From the IMG/VR virus record IMGVR_UViG_2529293249_000010: a stretch of 7,983 bases of DNA; one strand, given 5' to 3'. Position 1 is the stretch's first letter. Each line of letters begins with the position of its first letter. This DNA is from a virus. Lineage: Duplodnaviria; Heunggongvirae; Uroviricota; Caudoviricetes. Below the pieces are notes generated by a model. That model was not told the origin of the DNA and did not search any database. It saw only the letters and a program-made list of their open reading frames with translations. This document shows positions 1 to 7,983 of the stretch, one piece after another. The translations under genes and the position numbers were made by a program.

Positions 1-438
1 TCAAACGTCGCCAATCGCAGGAAAGACGTCTCTTTCAAGAGAGCGCCAGATATCTTCCGCATAGTCCTCTGTCACACTGGCTTTCTTCACATTCCACCAA
101 CGTTCAGCTACGAGTTGGAAAGTGTTGGTTTTGGCTTCCAGCGAACTGCGCAATTGTTCTTGCTGATGTTCCTGCGGATCGATCTGTTTAGCCAGTAGTG
201 AGCGGGACTCTGCACGGTAGTTTCTGGCATCGGCAAGGGTAACTGACGGGTAGGAGCCTATGCTCTTCTTTGCTCGTTTCTTGGTGACAGGGCGAATGTA
301 GCGAAACTGCCAGATTTTACTCCCGCTGGATTTAATGAGTAGCTCAAGGCCATCGCCATCATAGAGAACGTAGTCCGCCTCCTTGGGTTTGGCTGATTCT
401 ATTTCTTTAACGGATAGAGGTTTGGTTTGTCTTGCCAT
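1..438 (-). CDS. int: P4-type tyrosine integrase, N-terminal 145 aa only (gene continues beyond the window start)
   Basis: ORF open to the window edge, ATG at 438-436. N-terminus (LSVKEIESAKPKEADYVLYDGDGLELLIKSSGSKIWQFRY...SIGSYPSVTLADAR) has the signature of the arm-binding domain of P4/IntB-family integrases. Catalytic domain not visible in the window. Confidence 0.88.
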   Translation of the reverse strand: MARQTKPLSVKEIESAKPKEADYVLYDGDGLELLIKSSGSKIWQFRYIRPVTKKRAKKSIGSYPSVTLADARNYRAESRSLLAKQIDPQEHQQEQLRSSLEAKTNTFQLVAERWWNVKKASVTEDYAEDIWRSLERDVFPAIGDV

Positions 439-456
439 TGCCGGGTTTCCATAGTT

Positions 457-510
457 TTAGGCACCTCAAAAAACAATAAAGCTTTATGAGGTGCCTAACA
501 AGGTGCCTAA
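457..510 (-). promoter_or_regulatory. Candidate int promoter overlapped by a perfect 12-bp inverted repeat plus a third direct copy; possible Int operator / att-arm sites
   Basis: TTAGGCACCTCA (457-468) and its exact reverse complement TGAGGTGCCTAA (487-498) are separated by an 18-bp A/T-rich spacer; a third copy AGGTGCCTAA lies at 501-510. On the minus strand TTGTTA (496-501) - 17 bp - TATTGT (473-478) gives a sigma70-like promoter about 30 nt upstream of the int ATG. P4 int is reported to be autoregulated. Confidence 0.45.
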
Positions 511-563
511 AAGGATCGGATTTAATTAGTTTTCTTCGGACTTCGCGGGACAAATTGAGGGCA

Positions 564-597
564 CAAAAAAGCCCGCAGGGCTTGCGCCGTGCGGGCT
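564..597 (-). terminator. Putative rho-independent terminator (minus-strand orientation) between crr and int
   Basis: Stem AGCCCGCA (570-577) / TGCGGGCT (590-597) with a 12-nt loop; plus-strand A6 (565-570) gives a U-run immediately 3' of the stem on the minus-strand transcript. Confidence 0.4.
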
Positions 598-798
598 CTT
601 AGGACTTCATCGGATGACTCTGGTAATCACCGATGGAGAATTTTGGTGGGCTGGCGGAGTTTGAATAAATATTATATTGCTTTGATTTTTAACGATTTTG
701 TTTAATTCAGTTTTTGTGCGTATACCTAATTGTATACCAATGGCTGTAAGTTAATGTGAAATTAAAGCGCATTTTTACTTGGATTGATGCTATATCGT

Positions 799-1105
799 AC
801 AGGAAAAAAATTTTTTTTCGAAAGAACTGTTCACACTGTTCACCTTTCTTTTTTCTCCTTTTATTTCAGTATGATAGGTGGTGAATAATGGGTGAAGGGT
901 GAACATTCGATTCTTCACCTCCGGCATTCTGCTGGTGTGACTCATACCGGTGATTAATCCCCCGTACTGAAAATCACACAGGGAGAAAAAAGTTTTTTTT
1001 GATTTGATTGTTCACACTGTTCACCTTTCGTTTTTCTCTTTTAATTTCAGTGTGATAACGGGTGAATATACGGTGAAGGGTGAACAGTGGATTGTTCACC
1101 TTCGG
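799..1105. repeat. crr: crr (cis replication region): two ~125-bp direct repeats (about 799-924 and 978-1105, period ~181 bp), each with alpha-binding type-I iterons
   Basis: Near-identical units. Iterons TGTTCACA/TGTTCACC at 828-835, 837-844 and 1009-1016, 1018-1025; inverted GGTGAA(CA) copies at 881-905 and 1062-1087; TTCTTCACC at 911-919 and TGTTCACC at 1093-1100. Each unit is preceded by an A/T homopolymer run. The same octamer recurs in the ori cluster at 5834-5938. Confidence 0.85.
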
Positions 1106-1118
1106 GGGATTCAGGGAT

Positions 1119-1144
1119 AAAAAAAAGACCGGCAGATGCCGGTC
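1119..1144 (-). terminator. Rho-independent terminator of the left (alpha) operon
   Basis: Stem GACCGGC (1127-1133) / GCCGGTC (1138-1144), loop AGAT, followed on the minus-strand transcript by U8 (plus-strand A8 at 1119-1126); 17 nt downstream of the alpha stop codon (1163-1161). Confidence 0.6.
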
Positions 1145-1160
1145 AGATGAGTCATGAGGG

Positions 1161-3494
1161 TCAGGTTGTCGCAGGGTCGTCACATTTTGGCAGCCAGTCG
1201 CCGTAGCTTTCCTCTTTCAGCGTCAGGTTGGTCTGTATCCCCTGTTTGGTATGGCGCTTCTCGTAATTCAGTCCGTATTCCTTCAGCATCACCGGCAGCC
1301 CCAACCCGAACATTTTCAGACTGAGTACATTCCGGTAGCCGTTTGCCTCCATGTAGGCCAGATAGGCGTGATAGAGGTATTTACGGTAATTACGCGGGAT
1401 GATACTGGCGTTCCCCATATACATGCCGCTGGTCTGCGGCAGGGTTTCCAGATAGCCGATAAAATCAAACGTCGGGTCGGCATCCCGTTTGATGTTCAGC
1501 GCCTCGTCTGAGTTCTGCTGGGACTGAAGCAGTGACCGGGCGAGCATCGGGTCGCTGAATTTCTGCATCAGGTGACGCACGATGACCGCCAGCTCGCGGG
1601 TGATTTTGTCCTTAAGCTGCGGGTCGCGCTCCTGCGGGGCTATCTGTTCCGGGAAGTGAATAATCACCCGCCGGCGTGACACGCCGCCGCTGCGGTCGGT
1701 GAAGCGCATCGGGTTATTGTTCACGGCCAGAATTACCGCCGGGATATGCGTGGAGTATGCATCCCGGTATTTCGGGTCAACGGACACCGCATCGCCGCCG
1801 GTGATGGCCTTGAGTCCGGCACCGTCGCCGCTCCATTTTTCCTGGTCCGGCAGGCGTATCAGTGAGAAGCCAGTTAACGCGGCACGTTCACGCGGGGATT
1901 CCAGCGTCTCAATGGTGGCCGACGTGGCGTTATCCTCCCCGGCCAGCAGGGTGGCTATTTCGGCCATGATACTTTTGCCGCTGCCGCCGGGACCGGTCAC
2001 CTCCAGAAAGAGCTGCCAGTCGTAGCGGTTTGCCAGCACCATAAACAGTGCGGCCAGAATTACGTCGCGTTTTTCCGCACGACCACCGGCAGCACGGTCA
2101 AGCCAGCGCCAGAACGCGGGGGCGTGGGTTTCCAGCGTTTCCCCTTCCACCGGCGGGGTGAAATCCACATCGCACAGGGTACGCATCCAGTGTGACGGAC
2201 TGTGCGGGTGGAACGTGCCGTTCTGCGTGTCGAGCACGCCGTTACGAAAGCCAATCAGGCGGCGGGAGGGGGCTTCCTGCTGCGGAATAATCAGCTTCAG
2301 GGTGTCCACCACGGAGGCCACCTTCCCGGAGGAGAACGGCGCACGCAGACGCTGAAACAGCCCGGCCACATCCCGGGCAAAGTCCTGTGGCGGCAGCACC
2401 TTCCAGACACCATTTTCATAGCGGGACAGAAGCTGGCCGTTGGCATCGACCGCGAGCGCCTCGCCGTAATGCTCATAGATACGCATGGCCTTTTCGCTGG
2501 TACTCATGGCGGAAAACTCTGCTTCGCTCATGGTGTCGAACGGGCTTTCAGCCGGTGGCCGGATGGCATCATAAATGGCCTTACGGGTGGCCTCCCCGCC
2601 GTACTGCGTGAAGGCATCATTCCAGTCACCGAAGACCGGCGGCAGGGCAACAACACCTTCACACGCATCTGCGGCTGCGGCGGCTTTTTTCTGGCCGTCA
2701 CCGCTGAGGTCACGGTCTGCGGCAAGGACAATCTGACAGGCCGGATGCTTCTGCCGGGCAAGGCTGGCCAGAGAAAGGAGGTTCACGGAAGAAAGCGCCA
2801 CCATCACCGTTTCACCGGTCAGGTGATGTACGGTAAGTGCGGTCGCGTATCCCTCCGCTATCCACAGACGTTTTCCGGCCTGATTCTGTCCTTCAAGGGT
2901 GTGACAGGTGCCCCTGACCTGTCCGCCTTTCAGGGTGCGCTTACGGCCGTCAGCACTGATTAACTGAAGGTTAACCAGTTCGCCGCTGTCGTCATACAGT
3001 GGCACCACAAGGTCACCGGCACGCCAGCTCACGCCACCGGCTCTGTGTGTGCCGGTCAGCATCCGGCATTCCCGGCCGGGAAAGCCCTTGCGGGTCAGGT
3101 AGGCGTTACCGGTTCCGGGACGGGTTTTTGCCATCAGGGTTTGTGCCAGTGCGGCGGCGTTCTTCCGGGCAGCGTCTGTTTCAGCACCGGCGGCGGCCGT
3201 CACTGCCGGGTCAGCCGGGGGCAGGCTGCCGGTCACGGCAGCCACCTTTGCGGCCGCGTCGGACGGAGAGACACCAAACACCTTTTCAACCAGTTTCAGG
3301 CCGTCACCGGCACCACACTGATTGCAGTACCAGGTGCCGCGCCCCTCCCTGTCATCAAAACGGAAGCGGTCACTCCCGCCACAGACCGGACAGGGCTGAT
3401 GACGGTTTTTCAGCACCTGAATCCCCAGCGCCGGGAGAATACGCGGCCAGTGGCCGAGCGCATGGCTGACGGTGGCGGTTACGTTCATTTTCAT
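1161..3494 (-). CDS. alpha: Alpha: bifunctional DNA primase / helicase with C-terminal origin-binding domain (777 aa)
   Basis: 777-aa ORF, ATG at 3494 with GAAGGAG Shine-Dalgarno 8 nt upstream. N-terminal zinc ribbon CPVCGG...YCNQCG (residues 35-60); primase EGYATA motif (residues 214-219, nt 2838-2855); Walker A GPGGSGKS (nt 1971-1994). The iterons it should bind are present at crr and ori. Confidence 0.95.
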   Translation of the reverse strand: MKMNVTATVSHALGHWPRILPALGIQVLKNRHQPCPVCGGSDRFRFDDREGRGTWYCNQCGAGDGLKLVEKVFGVSPSDAAAKVAAVTGSLPPADPAVTAAAGAETDAARKNAAALAQTLMAKTRPGTGNAYLTRKGFPGRECRMLTGTHRAGGVSWRAGDLVVPLYDDSGELVNLQLISADGRKRTLKGGQVRGTCHTLEGQNQAGKRLWIAEGYATALTVHHLTGETVMVALSSVNLLSLASLARQKHPACQIVLAADRDLSGDGQKKAAAAADACEGVVALPPVFGDWNDAFTQYGGEATRKAIYDAIRPPAESPFDTMSEAEFSAMSTSEKAMRIYEHYGEALAVDANGQLLSRYENGVWKVLPPQDFARDVAGLFQRLRAPFSSGKVASVVDTLKLIIPQQEAPSRRLIGFRNGVLDTQNGTFHPHSPSHWMRTLCDVDFTPPVEGETLETHAPAFWRWLDRAAGGRAEKRDVILAALFMVLANRYDWQLFLEVTGPGGSGKSIMAEIATLLAGEDNATSATIETLESPRERAALTGFSLIRLPDQEKWSGDGAGLKAITGGDAVSVDPKYRDAYSTHIPAVILAVNNNPMRFTDRSGGVSRRRVIIHFPEQIAPQERDPQLKDKITRELAVIVRHLMQKFSDPMLARSLLQSQQNSDEALNIKRDADPTFDFIGYLETLPQTSGMYMGNASIIPRNYRKYLYHAYLAYMEANGYRNVLSLKMFGLGLPVMLKEYGLNYEKRHTKQGIQTNLTLKEESYGDWLPKCDDPATT

Positions 3495-3508
3495 GGTGTT
3501 GTTCTCCT

Positions 3509-3829
3509 TCAGTGCAGTACCGGCGCTTTTATGTGACGGGCACAGAGTTCATCCATCACAACCAGCCCGAGAAAGGACAGCGACGGCGCGGCCTTCAGGG
3601 GGCCGGATTCCATTAAATCTTCCAGCAGGGCACAGGCTATCTGACGCCCTTTTTCCTCACCGTGCTGGCGCAGATAAAAGCCTTCCAGCTCAGCGGCGAT
3701 GGCCGCCTCCAGTGATTCAAGGGTGAGATGCGGGTAGCGGTGCTGACGTTCGCACACGGTCAGCCAGGCACAGGCGACAGCGCGACGGTAAAGGGCTGCG
3801 CGTAAGACGGGCGGTAAGGGGGTTTTCAT
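3509..3829 (-). CDS. 106-aa conserved hypothetical protein of the left operon (position and length of P4 orf106); function unknown
   Basis: ATG at 3829 with GGAGG Shine-Dalgarno 7 nt upstream; TGA stop at 3511-3509 sits inside the alpha ribosome-binding site, 14 nt before the alpha ATG. No motif I can recognise. Confidence 0.75.
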
Positions 3830-3896
3830 TTGCTTTCCTCCCTGTGACAGATGACTGCATTCCGTGCCGGTTGCATTAACTGATAAGGCATATCTG

Positions 3897-3936
3897 CGTC
3901 TCCTGAAGACGTGCGTATCCCTGCGCGAATACGCAC
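3897..3936. other. Two adjacent hairpins in the 135-bp orf151-orf106 spacer (possible attenuator, processing site or antisense terminator)
   Basis: CGTCT (3897-3901) / AGACG (3907-3911) with a 5-nt loop; GTGCGTAT (3911-3918) / ATACGCAC (3929-3936) with a 10-nt loop. On the plus strand the second stem is followed by ATTTAATTTTT (3937-3947). This is the only sizeable non-coding gap in the otherwise coupled left operon. Confidence 0.4.
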
Positions 3937-3964
3937 ATTTAATTTTTCGGGTGTCGTTTTTTAA

Positions 3965-4420
3965 TTACAGATAATTGCGGTAACTGTTATCCGGGGTGAT
4001 TTCCGGGTCAGGCTCCGTGCGGGGAATTTCCCGCCATTCCCGCGCCACCGGTGCCGCCCGGCTGACCGGAACAGGGTCCTGCGGGTAAATATCCAGATAT
4101 TTCTCCCGCCATTTCTGTAATTCCGGGTCTCCGGCCATTTCTTTCAGTACCGCATGCCGGTTTACGGGGCTGCGTTTGAACAGGTCAGGACGGTCACAGG
4201 TAAATTCCCGCAGAAAACGCCCCAGCGGGATGTCTGTGGTGCGCCCGTCGGCGAGGATACGCACAAGGATACTGAATTTACGGCGGTACGGGTTCCAGAC
4301 AATTTCCGGGCAGCGGTACGGCATTTCCCACGGAATACCGTCTTCCAGAATGCCGACCACGGCCACATCGGGAAAACCGGCAGAACGGTAAATCTCACCG
4401 GGCTGGGGAAAATCAAACAT
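3965..4420 (-). CDS. 151-aa conserved hypothetical protein of the left operon (position and length of P4 orf151); function unknown
   Basis: ATG at 4420-4418; the upstream eps stop TGA (4415-4413) lies 2 nt inside this gene (ATGTTTGA), suggesting translational coupling. TAA stop at 3967-3965. Confidence 0.82.
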   Translation of the reverse strand: MFDFPQPGEIYRSAGFPDVAVVGILEDGIPWEMPYRCPEIVWNPYRRKFSILVRILADGRTTDIPLGRFLREFTCDRPDLFKRSPVNRHAVLKEMAGDPELQKWREKYLDIYPQDPVPVSRAAPVAREWREIPRTEPDPEITPDNSYRNYL

Positions 4421-4700
4421 GCGTCCTGTCTCCCCGGTCTTTCTGCTGGGCGAGAAAATCGCGGCACAGGCCTTTGGCTTTCAGCTCATTCAGCACAAAA
4501 TCAATATCTTCATTCAGGTAGCTGAAAATATGCGGAATGTAGAGCTGATGGAGGCCGGAGAGTTCACGGTGAATCAAATCACCCCCAACAAACTGGGATA
4601 CGGCGCTGGCGCGGTTGAGCTTATGGTAAGCCTCAATGCTGAGGTGTTCACGGGCGTCATGACGCGCTGAGACGGTCTGAGGGGCTTTTTTATTACGCAC
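4413..4700 (-). CDS. eps: Epsilon-like protein (95 aa, GTG start): candidate anti-repressor that derepresses the P2-type helper prophage
   Basis: No in-frame ATG exists downstream of the kil stop. GTG at 4700-4698 is preceded by GGAGG with a 6-nt spacer and gives exactly 95 codons; the kil stop TAA (4695-4693) lies 2 nt inside (GTGCGTAA). The coding-like region starts here, while the upstream part of the same frame is Cys/Pro/Trp-rich. Assignment to eps rests on position and recalled length. Confidence 0.68.
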
Positions 4701-4890
4701 GGGACACCTCCACCACCGGCAGACGGGCAGCAAGGGAGAGCACATAGTCACGGACAAGGGAACGGCGGGCGCTGCGTTCATCACCGGCGACGGTGCGAAG
4801 CATACAGATACGGGGATGACGGTCTGCGCGACGGACAGCCGCAAACACAAAGACAAATTCAGGGTGTGAGGGGGTAAGGGTCGTAGCCAT
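4693..4890 (-). CDS. kil: Kil (65 aa), first translated gene downstream of PLE; nested in-frame within eta
   Basis: ATG at 4890-4888 preceded by GGAGG (plus-strand CCTCC 4898-4902) with a 7-nt spacer; 65 codons; TAA at 4695-4693. The seqC element of the immunity leader (4899-4945) directly abuts this ribosome-binding site. Confidence 0.75.
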
Positions 4891-5292
4891 AAGGCAACCT
4901 CCGATAACAGCGTAAATGACGCTATCGCCGGAGTTTCCACGCTCGATGGCGATAGCCCAGACGGGGGTGGAAATACCGGCGTTATCGGAAACCGGCCAGC
5001 CCGGAGGCTGCCCCGCCTGAGCTACCATTGACTCTGCGGTATAATGAGCGGACGCGGGCAGAATGCACGGAGTGCCATTTGCTCGACTGACCACACACCA
5101 CACCATAATCTGGCGCTCTGTGGCGTTGATTGCGACACAAAAAAAGACGCATGGCGCGTCATATGTCGCCGATAACATACTCGGGTTTCCACGCCCGGCT
5201 GCCGATTTTGCGGCAGCGGAAAAACTATATCCGCAAATGCCGGAAAAAGGCAAGCCAGAAAAAGGAAGTTTTTGCAGAACAGGCATCATCAT
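4693..5292 (-). CDS. eta: Eta (about 197-199 aa), long ORF beginning upstream of PLE and ending as kil; translated from PLL transcripts
   Basis: Same frame as kil, open back to ATGATGATG (5292-5284), giving 199/198/197 aa. The vis stop TGA (5291-5289) is embedded in the triple ATG. The frame continues upstream to an ATG at 5337 (214 aa) that lies inside vis. It runs through the whole immunity leader, so it can only be translated from PLL read-through RNA. Confidence 0.55.
4899..4945 (-). promoter_or_regulatory. seqC: target of CI RNA in the left-operon leader, abutting the kil ribosome-binding site
   Basis: The transcript-strand sequence carries GCGUGGAAAC...GUUAUCGG, as does seqA; both blocks are complementary to the seqB region (4966-4988). 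Position is immediately 5' of the kil Shine-Dalgarno. Confidence 0.5.
4950..5020 (-). ncRNA. cI: CI immunity RNA (seqB region); boundaries approximate
   Basis: The plus strand at 4966-4988 reads GTGGAAATACCGGCGTTATCGG, so the minus-strand transcript carries CCGAUAAC...UUUCCAC, complementary to the GUGGAAAC and GUUAUCGG blocks of seqA and seqC. The region is GC-rich with several internal inverted repeats (for example CCGG...CCGG). Exact processed ends cannot be read from sequence. Confidence 0.5.
5165..5204 (-). promoter_or_regulatory. seqA: CI RNA target at about +13 to +52 of the PLE transcript
   Basis: The transcript-strand sequence CGGCAGCCGGGCGUGGAAACCCGAGUAUGUUAUCGGCGAC shares the GUGGAAAC and GUUAUCGG blocks with seqC. 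Confidence 0.5.
5224..5253 (-). promoter_or_regulatory. PLE, sigma70-type promoter of the left operon / immunity transcript
   Basis: On the minus strand TTGCCT (5253-5248) - 18-bp spacer - TATAGT (5229-5224); predicted start near 5217, just upstream of seqA and about 35 bp downstream of the vis stop. Confidence 0.5.
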
Positions 5293-5555
5293 GCGTCGTA
5301 CCCCCGTTTGCGTCCGGCAATGCGCCCGGCCATCCATGCGGTGACTTCAGAGTGCAGCCAGGCCACATTTTTACCGCCAAGACTCACCTGCGGCGGAAAT
5401 TCCCCCTTACGGATGAGTTCGTAGATGGTCGAGCGTGACAGGCCGCACAGGTGCATCACTTCCGGCAGACGTAAAAAACGCTCCTGCGTGATGTCCGGCA
5501 GCGGCATCAGTGGCGTCACAGGGGCGGGAGACGGGGAAGAAAAAACAGCTTGCAT
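5289..5555 (-). CDS. vis: Vis: AlpA/Vis-family helix-turn-helix regulator and excision factor (88 aa)
   Basis: ATG at 5555-5553 with GAGG 7 nt upstream. Core motif [49 protein letters not shown] is typical of the AlpA/Vis/Xis-like family. It is the first gene after PLL. An internal ATG at codon 17 is an alternative start. Confidence 0.85.
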
Positions 5556-5599
5556 CGGGCTACCTCGTTAATGTCCATACAGCACCGGATAAGTCCGTC

Positions 5600-5680
5600 C
5601 GGCTTCGGGTAGCGCTTTATTTTGTGAATATTTTCGGCAGACGCAACAGGGGGGATTTGTTCCGGCAGTCTTACAATGGC
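5600..5680 (-). promoter_or_regulatory. PLL late promoter region with a Delta/Ogr-type activator box TGT-N12-ACA
   Basis: Dyad TGTTCCGGCAGTCTTACA at 5658-5675, about 100 bp upstream of the vis ATG; a -55 placement would put the start near 5611. The -10 element is poor (AAAATA or TATTCA-like), as expected for an activator-dependent promoter. Confidence 0.42.
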
Positions 5681-5832
5681 TGTGTATTTTTTGTACATCA
5701 GCGCCAGATAGCTTTAAAACGCTCTGGAAGGAGCTGGAAAAAATTATAGTGAAATACAAATTGTTTTTTCTTATTTATTTCAGTGAATTAATAAAAATAA
5801 AAAGTAATAAACAGCACAAAAAGCCCATCAAC

Positions 5833-5938
5833 GGGTGAACAGTGGTGAACAGACGGTGAACAGTCATTACTGCGATTGTTCACCCTTTAACTTACTGTAT
5901 TACTTATCTTTTTTATTAAGGTGAACAGAGGTGAACAG
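5833..5938. other. ori: ori (origin of replication): cluster of six alpha-binding iterons flanked by A/T-rich DNA
   Basis: GGTGAACAG at 5834-5842, 5844-5852, 5855-5863, 5920-5928 and 5930-5938 (spaced 10-11 bp), plus inverted TGTTCACC at 5877-5884. Strongly A/T-rich flanks at 5760-5820 and 5886-5960. Same octamer as in crr, about 4.9 kb away. Confidence 0.82.
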
Positions 5939-6016
5939 TAAAATATAAAAAAACAAACAGTAAGCCGGTTTTTCCTGCGACCTTTTCCTGGCTTGCCGGT
6001 GTGAGGATGAGTCTCC

Positions 6017-6080
6017 TGTGTCAGGGCTGGCACATCTGCAATGCGTCGTGTTGTTGTCCGGTGTACGTCACAATTTTCTC
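6017..6080 (+). promoter_or_regulatory. Psid late promoter with a Delta/Ogr-type activator box TGT-N12-ACA
   Basis: Dyad TGTGTCAGGGCTGGCACA at 6017-6034; candidate -10 CACAAT at 6069-6074; sid Shine-Dalgarno GAGGAG at 6094-6099, 6 nt before the ATG. Confidence 0.48.
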
Positions 6081-6105
6081 AACCTGAAGTGACGAGGAGC
6101 CGAAA

Positions 6106-6840
6106 ATGTCTGACAACACCATCCCTGAATATCTGCAATCCGCGCTGGCACAACTGGAAAAGGCCAGAGCCGCCCATCTTGAGAACGCCCGTCTGATGGA
6201 TGAGACCGTCACGGCCATTGAACGGGCAGAGCAGGAAAAAAATGCGCTGGCGCAGGCCGACGGAAACGACGCTGACGACTGGCGCACGGCCTTTCGTGCA
6301 GCCGGTGGTGTCCTGAGCGACGAGCTGAAACAGCGCCACATTGAGCGCGTGGCACGCCGGGAGCTGGTACAGGAATATGACAATCTGGCCGTGGTGCTGA
6401 ATTTTGAACGCGAACGCCTGAAAGGGGCGTGTGACAGCACGGCCACCGCCTACCGGAAGGCACATCATCACCTGCTGAGTCTGTATGCAGAGCATGAGCT
6501 GGAACACGCCCTGAATGAAACCTGTGAGGCGCTTGTCCGGGCAATGCATCTGAGCATTCTGGTACAGGAAAATCCGCTCGCCAACACCACCGGCCATCAG
6601 GGCTACGTCGCACCGGAAAAGGCTGTCATGCAGCAGGTGAAATCATCGCTGGAACAGAAAATTAAACAGATGCAAATCAGCCTCACCGGCGAGCCGGTTC
6701 TCCGGCTGACCGGACTGTCAGCGGCAACACTTCCTCACATGGATTATGAGGTGGCAGGCACACCGGCACAGCGCAAGGTGTGGCAGGACAAAATAGACCA
6801 GCAGGGAGCAGTGCTTAAGGCCAGAGGACTGCTGTCATGA
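6106..6840 (+). CDS. sid: Sid: external scaffolding / capsid size-determination protein (244 aa)
   Basis: 244-aa ORF with a strong Shine-Dalgarno; predicted to be highly alpha-helical and charged. Length and position (first gene of the Psid operon, upstream of delta and psu) match P4 Sid. Confidence 0.93.
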   Translation: MSDNTIPEYLQSALAQLEKARAAHLENARLMDETVTAIERAEQEKNALAQADGNDADDWRTAFRAAGGVLSDELKQRHIERVARRELVQEYDNLAVVLNFERERLKGACDSTATAYRKAHHHLLSLYAEHELEHALNETCEALVRAMHLSILVQENPLANTTGHQGYVAPEKAVMQQVKSSLEQKIKQMQISLTGEPVLRLTGLSAATLPHMDYEVAGTPAQRKVWQDKIDQQGAVLKARGLLS

Positions 6841-7337
6841 TTTACTGCCCGTCGTGTGGACATGTTGCTCACACCCGCCGCGCACATTTCATGGACGATG
6901 GCACCAAGATAATGATTGCACAGTGCCGGAATATTTATTGCTCTGCGACATTTGAAGCGAGTGAAAGCTTTTTCTCTGACAGTAAAGATTCAGGAATGGA
7001 ATACATTTCAGGCAAACAGAGATACCGCGATTCACTGACGTCAGCCTCCGGCAGTATGAAACGCCCGAAAAGAATGCTTGTTACCGGATATTGTTGTCGG
7101 AGATGTAAAGGCCTTGCACTGTCAAGAACATCGCGGCGTCTGTCTCAGGAAGTCACCGAGCGTTTTTATGTGTGCACGGATCCGGGCTGTGGTCTGGTGT
7201 TTAAAACGCTTCAGACCATCACCCGCTTCATTGTCCGCCCGGTCACGCCGGACGAACTGGCAGAACGCCTGCATGAAAAACAGGAACTGCCGCCAGTACG
7301 CTTAAAAACACAATCATATTCGCTGCGTCTGGAATGA
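6837..7337 (+). CDS. delta: Delta: late-gene transcriptional activator, tandem Ogr-type zinc-finger protein (166 aa)
   Basis: ATG overlaps the sid stop (ATGA at 6837-6840). Two Ogr-like modules, each with C-x2-C ... C-x4-C: CPSCG...CRNIYC and CRRCKG...CTDPGC. Confidence 0.93.
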   Translation: MIYCPSCGHVAHTRRAHFMDDGTKIMIAQCRNIYCSATFEASESFFSDSKDSGMEYISGKQRYRDSLTSASGSMKRPKRMLVTGYCCRRCKGLALSRTSRRLSQEVTERFYVCTDPGCGLVFKTLQTITRFIVRPVTPDELAERLHEKQELPPVRLKTQSYSLRLE

Positions 7338-7410
7338 GGGCTGCCGGTTAACCCCGGCCGTCGCCGCACACCGTATTTTTATTCTTCAGCATGATGAGAA
7401 AGAGATAACG

Positions 7411-7983
7411 ATGGAGAGCACAGCCTTACAGCAGGCCTTTGACACCTGTCAGAATAACAAAGCAGCATGGCTGCAACGCAAAAATGAGCTGGCTGCGGCC
7501 GAACAGGAATATCTGCGGCTTCTGTCCGGGGAAGGCAGAAACGTCAGTCGCCTGGACGAATTACGCAATATTATCGAAGTCAGAAAATGGCAGGTGAATC
7601 AGGCCGCCGGTCGTTATATTCGTTCGCATGAAGCCGTTCAGCACATCAGCATCCGCGACCGGCTGAATGATTTTATGCAGCAGCACGGCACAGCACTGGC
7701 GGCGGCACTGGCACCGGAGCTGATGGGATACAGTGAGCTGACGGCCATTGCCCGAAACTGTGCCATACAGCGTGCCACAGATGCCCTGCGTGAAGCCCTT
7801 CTGTCCTGGCTTGCGAAGGGGGAAAAAATTAATTATTCCGCACAGGATAGTGACATTTTAACGACCATCGGATTCAGGCCTGACGCGGCTTCGGTGGATG
7901 ACAGCCGTGAAAAATTCACCCCTGCGCAGAACATGATTTTTTCGCGTAAAAGTGCGCAACTGGAATCACATCAGTCTGTGTAA
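7411..7983 (+). CDS. psu: Psu: polarity suppression protein (Rho antagonist / capsid decoration), 190 aa
   Basis: 190-aa ORF with a purine-rich ribosome-binding site (AAGAGA, 7400-7405); TAA stop is the last three bases of the window. Length and position after delta match P4 Psu. Confidence 0.92.
   Translation: MESTALQQAFDTCQNNKAAWLQRKNELAAAEQEYLRLLSGEGRNVSRLDELRNIIEVRKWQVNQAAGRYIRSHEAVQHISIRDRLNDFMQQHGTALAAALAPELMGYSELTAIARNCAIQRATDALREALLSWLAKGEKINYSAQDSDILTTIGFRPDAASVDDSREKFTPAQNMIFSRKSAQLESHQSV

Follow-up and report, generated by a model that had tools for sequence, protein, structure and literature searches.

P22 Ant and coliphage 186 Tum are anti-repressors that act by binding a repressor directly. 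The Epsilon (E) protein of satellite phage P4 resembles both: each is small and inactivates a prophage repressor through protein–protein binding, without cleaving it. It differs from them in being encoded by a satellite and in targeting the repressor of another element, and it has no detectable relationship to either in sequence or fold. P4 E binds the C repressor of P2 in a multi-subunit complex that is unable to bind DNA, leading to lytic growth of P2, and the P2 sos mutation (Thr67Ile in C) abolishes the E–C interaction, as described in the P2 C crystal-structure paper (PMC2995052). The P4 records X51522 and NC_001609 annotate the gene at the complement of 7888–8175, 288 nt, as the "epsilon gene product (AA 1-95)" or "helper derepression protein", and place it between a 137-codon ORF, historically labeled cI or ash, and ORF151; the older P4 record X02534 also has it, as "epsilon gene (aa 1-95)". 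Both the gene and its function are therefore already known; P4 records have listed them for decades, together with the length of 95 codons and the GTG start, which was first annotated in the 1980s. A text search returned nothing that treats P4, epsilon and GTG together.

The window, by which we mean the whole stretch of 7,983 nucleotides analyzed here, aligns from 805 to 7983 with satellite phage P4 (X51522 / NC_001609) at 97.3% identity over 7.2 kb. On its minus strand, the gene that we call eps occupies 4413–4700, a length of 288 nt as in P4 7888–8175, and comprises 95 sense codons followed by TGA at 4415–4413. It aligns base for base with P4 epsilon, GTG included, with three nucleotide differences; two of these are synonymous and the third places Gln at position 36 in lieu of the Arg of P4, Gln being the family consensus at that column. 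The window protein is thus identical to P4 Epsilon (NP_042039.1 / CAA35901.1) at 94 of 95 residues (tblastn E = 4e-59), and the two genes share the same frame, GTG, GGAGG, 8-nt overlaps and operon position. The initial annotation had proposed that the gene encodes Epsilon and called for a BLASTP comparison with the P4 protein, and the proposal holds at this level of identity.

Profile searches lead to the same family. The Pfam model PF25738, "Derepression", matches residues 1–95 of the window protein over profile positions 1–95 of 95 with 170.3 bits (E = 7.7e-51; gathering cut-off 27 bits), and phrog_10016 likewise covers residues 1–95 of 95. A protein search returned 91 database homologues, which bear the name "Derepression protein" in every source that names them; the complete ones are mostly 94–99 aa long, and the commonest cluster, of 95 aa, has 802 member sequences. 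Members of the PF25738/phrog_10016 family occur throughout Enterobacterales, and at every locus inspected they follow an Ash/Icd-like gene; outside the E. coli/P4 clade, most members start with ATG, and many carry a 4-residue insertion (99 aa). Nothing in our data speaks against the epsilon identification. Taken as a whole, the locus is almost certainly best explained as epsilon in a satellite prophage of the P4 type, with a GTG start, 95 residues and, by homology, an anti-repressor function.

The surroundings are those of a P4-type satellite, with an alpha primase, sid, delta, psu and the CI RNA all present in the window. The element differs from P4 itself in being a P4-like prophage with another integrase end. 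Window positions 1–804, which include the integrase N terminus (1–438, minus strand) and its flank, have no megablast match in P4, and positions 4–665 match Klebsiella phage records at about 92–93%. P4-like elements often exchange integrases (PMC8628076), and the non-P4 left end of the window fits this behavior. Within the window, we found no helper prophage and no C repressor.

The order of ORFs in the window equals that of the P4 annotation, with eps immediately downstream of kil/eta and followed by orf151, cnr and alpha. The full minus-strand order of this leftward early/late operon is orf88/alpA, eta/kil with the CI RNA inside, eps, orf151, cnr (orf106/DUF5375) and the alpha primase, and the diverged relatives keep the corresponding order of AlpA, Ash/Icd, Derepression, orf151-like, DUF5375 and primase genes. 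The 65-aa Icd-like kil (4693–4890, minus strand; NF033153 phage_ICD_like, E = 1.6e-21) is nested in eta, a 199-aa ORF of the Ash family (4693–5292, minus strand), and the two end at a common stop, TAA 4695–4693. The start of eta in turn overlaps the stop of the AlpA-like orf88 (5289–5555, minus strand) by ATGA. PGAP annotates eta in the locus L003 as an "Icd-like" CDS of 199 aa. On the other side of eps, orf151 (3965–4420, minus strand) corresponds to P4 "ORF151" and matches phrog_10748, a family of unknown function.

Rfam models for C4, isrK and the c4-a1b1 target element match within the eta ORF, on the upstream side of kil. The CI immunity RNA, a C4 antisense RNA, lies at 4945–5032 on the minus strand (RF01695, 77.9 bits against a gathering score of 45), and its target elements (isrK / c4-a1b1) lie at 5140–5217 and 5178–5230 on the same strand. 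This set of RNAs matches the known RNA-based immunity region of P4. Between 3400 and 5800, we observe a single sigma-70-like site, at 5253–5224, and the stretch from kil to orf151 has neither a promoter-like nor a terminator-like site, which makes eps an internal cistron of the operon.

The initiation codon of eps is GTG 4700–4698, and the minus strand around it reads ...GGTGGTGGAGGTGTCCC GTG CGT AAT AAA AAA GCC.... It is preceded by the Shine–Dalgarno sequence GGAGG (4711–4707), which lies within the last codons of kil/eta and is separated from the GTG by the 6-nt spacer TGTCCC. The initial annotation had described this GTG, a GGAGG 6 nt upstream and a frame of 95 codons, all of which we verified in the sequence, the frame being counted to its TGA. 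It had also noted that a six-frame track displays the gene as a 175-aa ORF, and the program-made ORF list indeed gives the frame as 175 aa at 4413–4940. Its description of the GTG as the sole start stands from the kil stop onward but does not extend upstream, where two in-frame ATGs, at 4745 and 4781, lie within kil. The 95 codons themselves contain no in-frame ATG, and the next in-frame canonical starts downstream of the GTG are TTG 4577 and GTG 4496. Both are ruled out as alternative starts, as they lie beyond residues 19–31, where conservation in the family is highest. By itself, the start motif is not significant beyond chance: GGAGG-N6-GTG is found once where 0.25 occurrences are expected, at least one is seen in 46 of 200 shuffles, and there are 16 RTGNNTRA sites for an expectation of 13.7. 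The case for eps is nonetheless decisive because homology and conservation carry it, not motif statistics.

The same conservation bears on whether translation could begin at one of the upstream ATGs. Initiation at 4745 or 4781 would yield an Epsilon of 110 or 122 residues in which the GTG encodes an internal valine, and in favor of this reading the frame is open for 107 codons before the GTG and the mechanical ORF list gives 175 aa. Neither ATG, however, has a Shine–Dalgarno sequence, and both are poorly kept among relatives, with Met at the −15 position in 4 of 11 loci and at the −27 position in 2 of 11. A stop closes the eps frame one codon upstream of the start in the locus L098 and four codons upstream in L096, and a longer product is therefore impossible there. 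Moreover, the PF25738 and PHROG profiles both begin at the GTG codon, and the ATG of the relatives falls exactly at this position. Over the 190 nt upstream of the eps start, the kil frame evolves with an omega of 0.07–0.19, whereas the eps frame has an omega of 1.5–7.4, like the third frame and like non-coding sequence; purifying selection upstream of the start is in the kil frame only. We regard an upstream start as exceedingly improbable, and it is the comparative evidence, not the sequence of the window alone, that excludes ATGs 4745 and 4781.

Downstream of the GTG, the eps frame shows the opposite behavior to its upstream extension, with a dN/dS of 0.15–0.37 against the 10 relatives that yielded an estimate. 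Of 74 columns each, 46, 31 and 72 are variable at codon positions 1, 2 and 3, so that the third position varies most. The homologous start codon is ATG in all 13 diverged loci, behind GGAGG, GGGGG or TGAGG at the same spacing. These loci have 57–82% protein identity to the window Epsilon and include E. coli B2C, Salmonella, Klebsiella, Enterobacter, Edwardsiella, Serratia, Buttiauxella and Citrobacter. Among the other sequences tallied, which are close E. coli/P4-type loci and include two P4 records, the start is GTG in 85 of 91. Four independent lines of comparison agree in identifying GTG 4700–4698 as the real start, and they provide independent, sequence-only backing of the annotated start of eps.

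Each end of eps overlaps its neighbor. At the upstream junction, GTGCGTAA, the TAA of kil/eta (4695–4693) follows two bases after the GTG, for an overlap of 8 nt; at the downstream junction, ATGTTTGA, the ATG of orf151 (4420–4418) overlaps the eps stop, again by 8 nt. Both junctions are as first described, with the kil stop 2 nt inside eps and the eps stop 2 nt inside orf151, and a stop–start overlap of the kind used to define a coupled gene pair is found at both ends of the gene. Among the 13 diverged relatives, eight retain a start-NN-TAA overlap at the eps start and, in the other five, the upstream stop lies 1 to 11 nt into eps. The ATGTTTGA junction is retained in 10 of the 13. Its conservation fixes the C-terminal His-Val of Epsilon, because CAT GTT TGA contains the ATG of orf151. 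We also observe that this His-Val pair (4416–4421) is kept wherever orf151 follows and lost where the next gene begins without overlap.

These conserved overlaps, together with a Shine–Dalgarno sequence located inside kil, fit translational coupling from kil/eta to eps and on to orf151, which we consider a reasonable inference. Ribosomes ending kil/eta, whose stop lies 5 nt past the first base of the GTG, would feed initiation at eps, and ribosomes ending eps would feed initiation at orf151. The published description of P4 eta/Kil reports that eta translation is coupled to alpA and governs read-through of the operon (PMC10111431), and ribosome traffic over the kil/eps junction is thus regulated. 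Alternatively, eps may initiate independently from its strong Shine–Dalgarno sequence, with the 8-nt overlaps reflecting compact phage packing only. In favor of this reading, the 6-nt spacing of GGAGG is optimal, the RNA around it folds no more stably than shuffles do (z = +1.0), leaving the site unoccluded, and epsilon occurs without a downstream overlapping gene in the loci L096, L098 and L010. It accounts less well for the ATG/GTG-NN-TAA overlaps and near-overlaps at the upstream junction, for the recurrence of ATGTTTGA with its effect on the Epsilon C terminus, and for the coupling already described for P4 eta. Independent initiation is a possibility of real weight, though less likely than not.

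The Shine–Dalgarno region also has a candidate pairing partner within the gene. The heptamer GAGGUGU (4710–4704), which overlaps GGAGG, is complementary at every base to ACACCUC within codons 18–20 of eps (4641–4647, minus strand), and over 12 loci 88% of cells retain the pairing. A regulatory helix between these arms is unsupported: just one double-sided change occurs in the 12 loci, a result that also sits with independent initiation; both arms are under coding constraint, and the fold z is +1.0. Coding constraint alone may account for the pairing.

All the diverged relatives inspected start eps with ATG, in contrast to the GTG of the E. coli/P4 clade. One reading of this difference is that the GTG is tuned and, with the 8-nt overlap and the possible helix, would hold epsilon synthesis low and make it strictly dependent on completion of kil/eta. 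We consider this unlikely. If the GTG were tuned in this manner, derepression of the helper would depend on the state of the satellite's own immunity, because the CI RNA blocks eta/kil translation and read-through.

As to function, the initial annotation had described Epsilon as the anti-repressor through which the satellite derepresses its helper prophage, the role that the literature reports for P4 E (PMC2995052). Because the two proteins are identical at 94 of 95 residues, the P4 mechanism transfers to the window protein by homology. The window Epsilon would accordingly be predicted to bind a P2-type C repressor and to derepress the helper. It would have no DNA-binding activity itself; rather, it would complex the C repressor of the helper, which would lose operator binding, and the satellite would gain the late functions of the derepressed helper. 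An AlphaFold2 model of moderate confidence (mean pLDDT 74), built from a 30-sequence alignment, places helices at residues 22–48, 51–76 and 80–89; the first 20 or so residues are predicted to be a disordered tail, which leads into a helical hairpin and a short third helix. A PDB sequence search with Epsilon gave no match, and a Foldseek search of the PDB with this model gave generic helical hairpins only (best E > 3).

We also considered whether the P4-like prophage could be decaying and eps be inactive, no longer acting on a helper. In favor of decay, the window represents a P4-like element of a chromosome, not P4 itself, its integrase end (1–665) is not that of P4, and databases contain both truncated and fused forms of epsilon. 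Against decay, the frame is intact, and its one amino acid change from P4 is conservative and toward the consensus. The neighboring genes alpha, cnr, orf151, kil/eta, orf88, sid, delta and psu are all full length, purifying selection acts across the epsilon family, and other E. coli genomes encode an identical protein, WP_001244665.1. Loss of function is therefore very improbable, and we retain the reading of eps as an epsilon gene with an anti-repressor product.

WP_001244665.1 also bears on how the gene is annotated. The initial annotation had expected automated ATG-only gene callers to miss or mis-extend eps. This concern does not hold, because the NCBI pipeline calls the identical 288-nt CDS, and exactly the 95-aa product, in E. 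coli genomes, under the name "derepression protein" or "hypothetical protein". The longer database forms that we inspected are either kil–eps frame-shift fusions or C-terminal truncations and fusions. Three of the database homologues (P0003, P0065 and P0069), from metagenome and assembly gene calls, are fusions of 156–167 aa that begin with the kil N terminus (MATT.../MAST...) and then shift into the eps frame. The join in P0003, whose cluster has 100 member sequences, fits a 7-nt deletion just past the kil start. Such kil–eps fusion calls may be either genuine variants or assembly errors.

The assignment of eps to PF25738 has a consequence for how the distribution of epsilon is read. A published census of P4-like satellites (PMC8628076) refers to "Ash (also called epsilon)" and uses PF10554 (Phage_ASH) as its epsilon marker. 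In the window, PF10554 matches the eta/kil ORF (4693–5337, minus strand) and not epsilon, and the true epsilon is the PF25738 match at 4413–4700 (minus strand). As PF10554 is the model for eta/Ash, the presence or absence of "epsilon" in that census refers to eta/Ash. For satellite surveys, this means that the distribution of the true anti-repressor was not measured by the census.

Kil and eps do not always occur together. Among 5,426 complete E. coli genomes, kil-like DNA is present in 1,816 and the kil-eps-orf151 stretch in 986. In the eps-less elements inspected, DNA similarity to the window ends at query position 196 of 601 (window 4705), next to the eps GTG at query position 201. In these elements, kil is followed directly by a 73- to 75-aa phrog_10110 gene (2703–2924 in L101 and 2703–2930 in L102, from E. 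coli O157:H7 and LR-03) and then by cnr (DUF5375) and the alpha primase. A gene of the phrog_10110 family is also seen between orf151 and cnr in the locus L004, and an 86-aa ORF occupies that place in L093. The existence of eps-less P4-like elements whose similarity breaks at the kil/eps junction indicates that eps and orf151 form an optional module. That the module is optional raises the question of how E. coli P4-like elements lacking eps reach their helpers.
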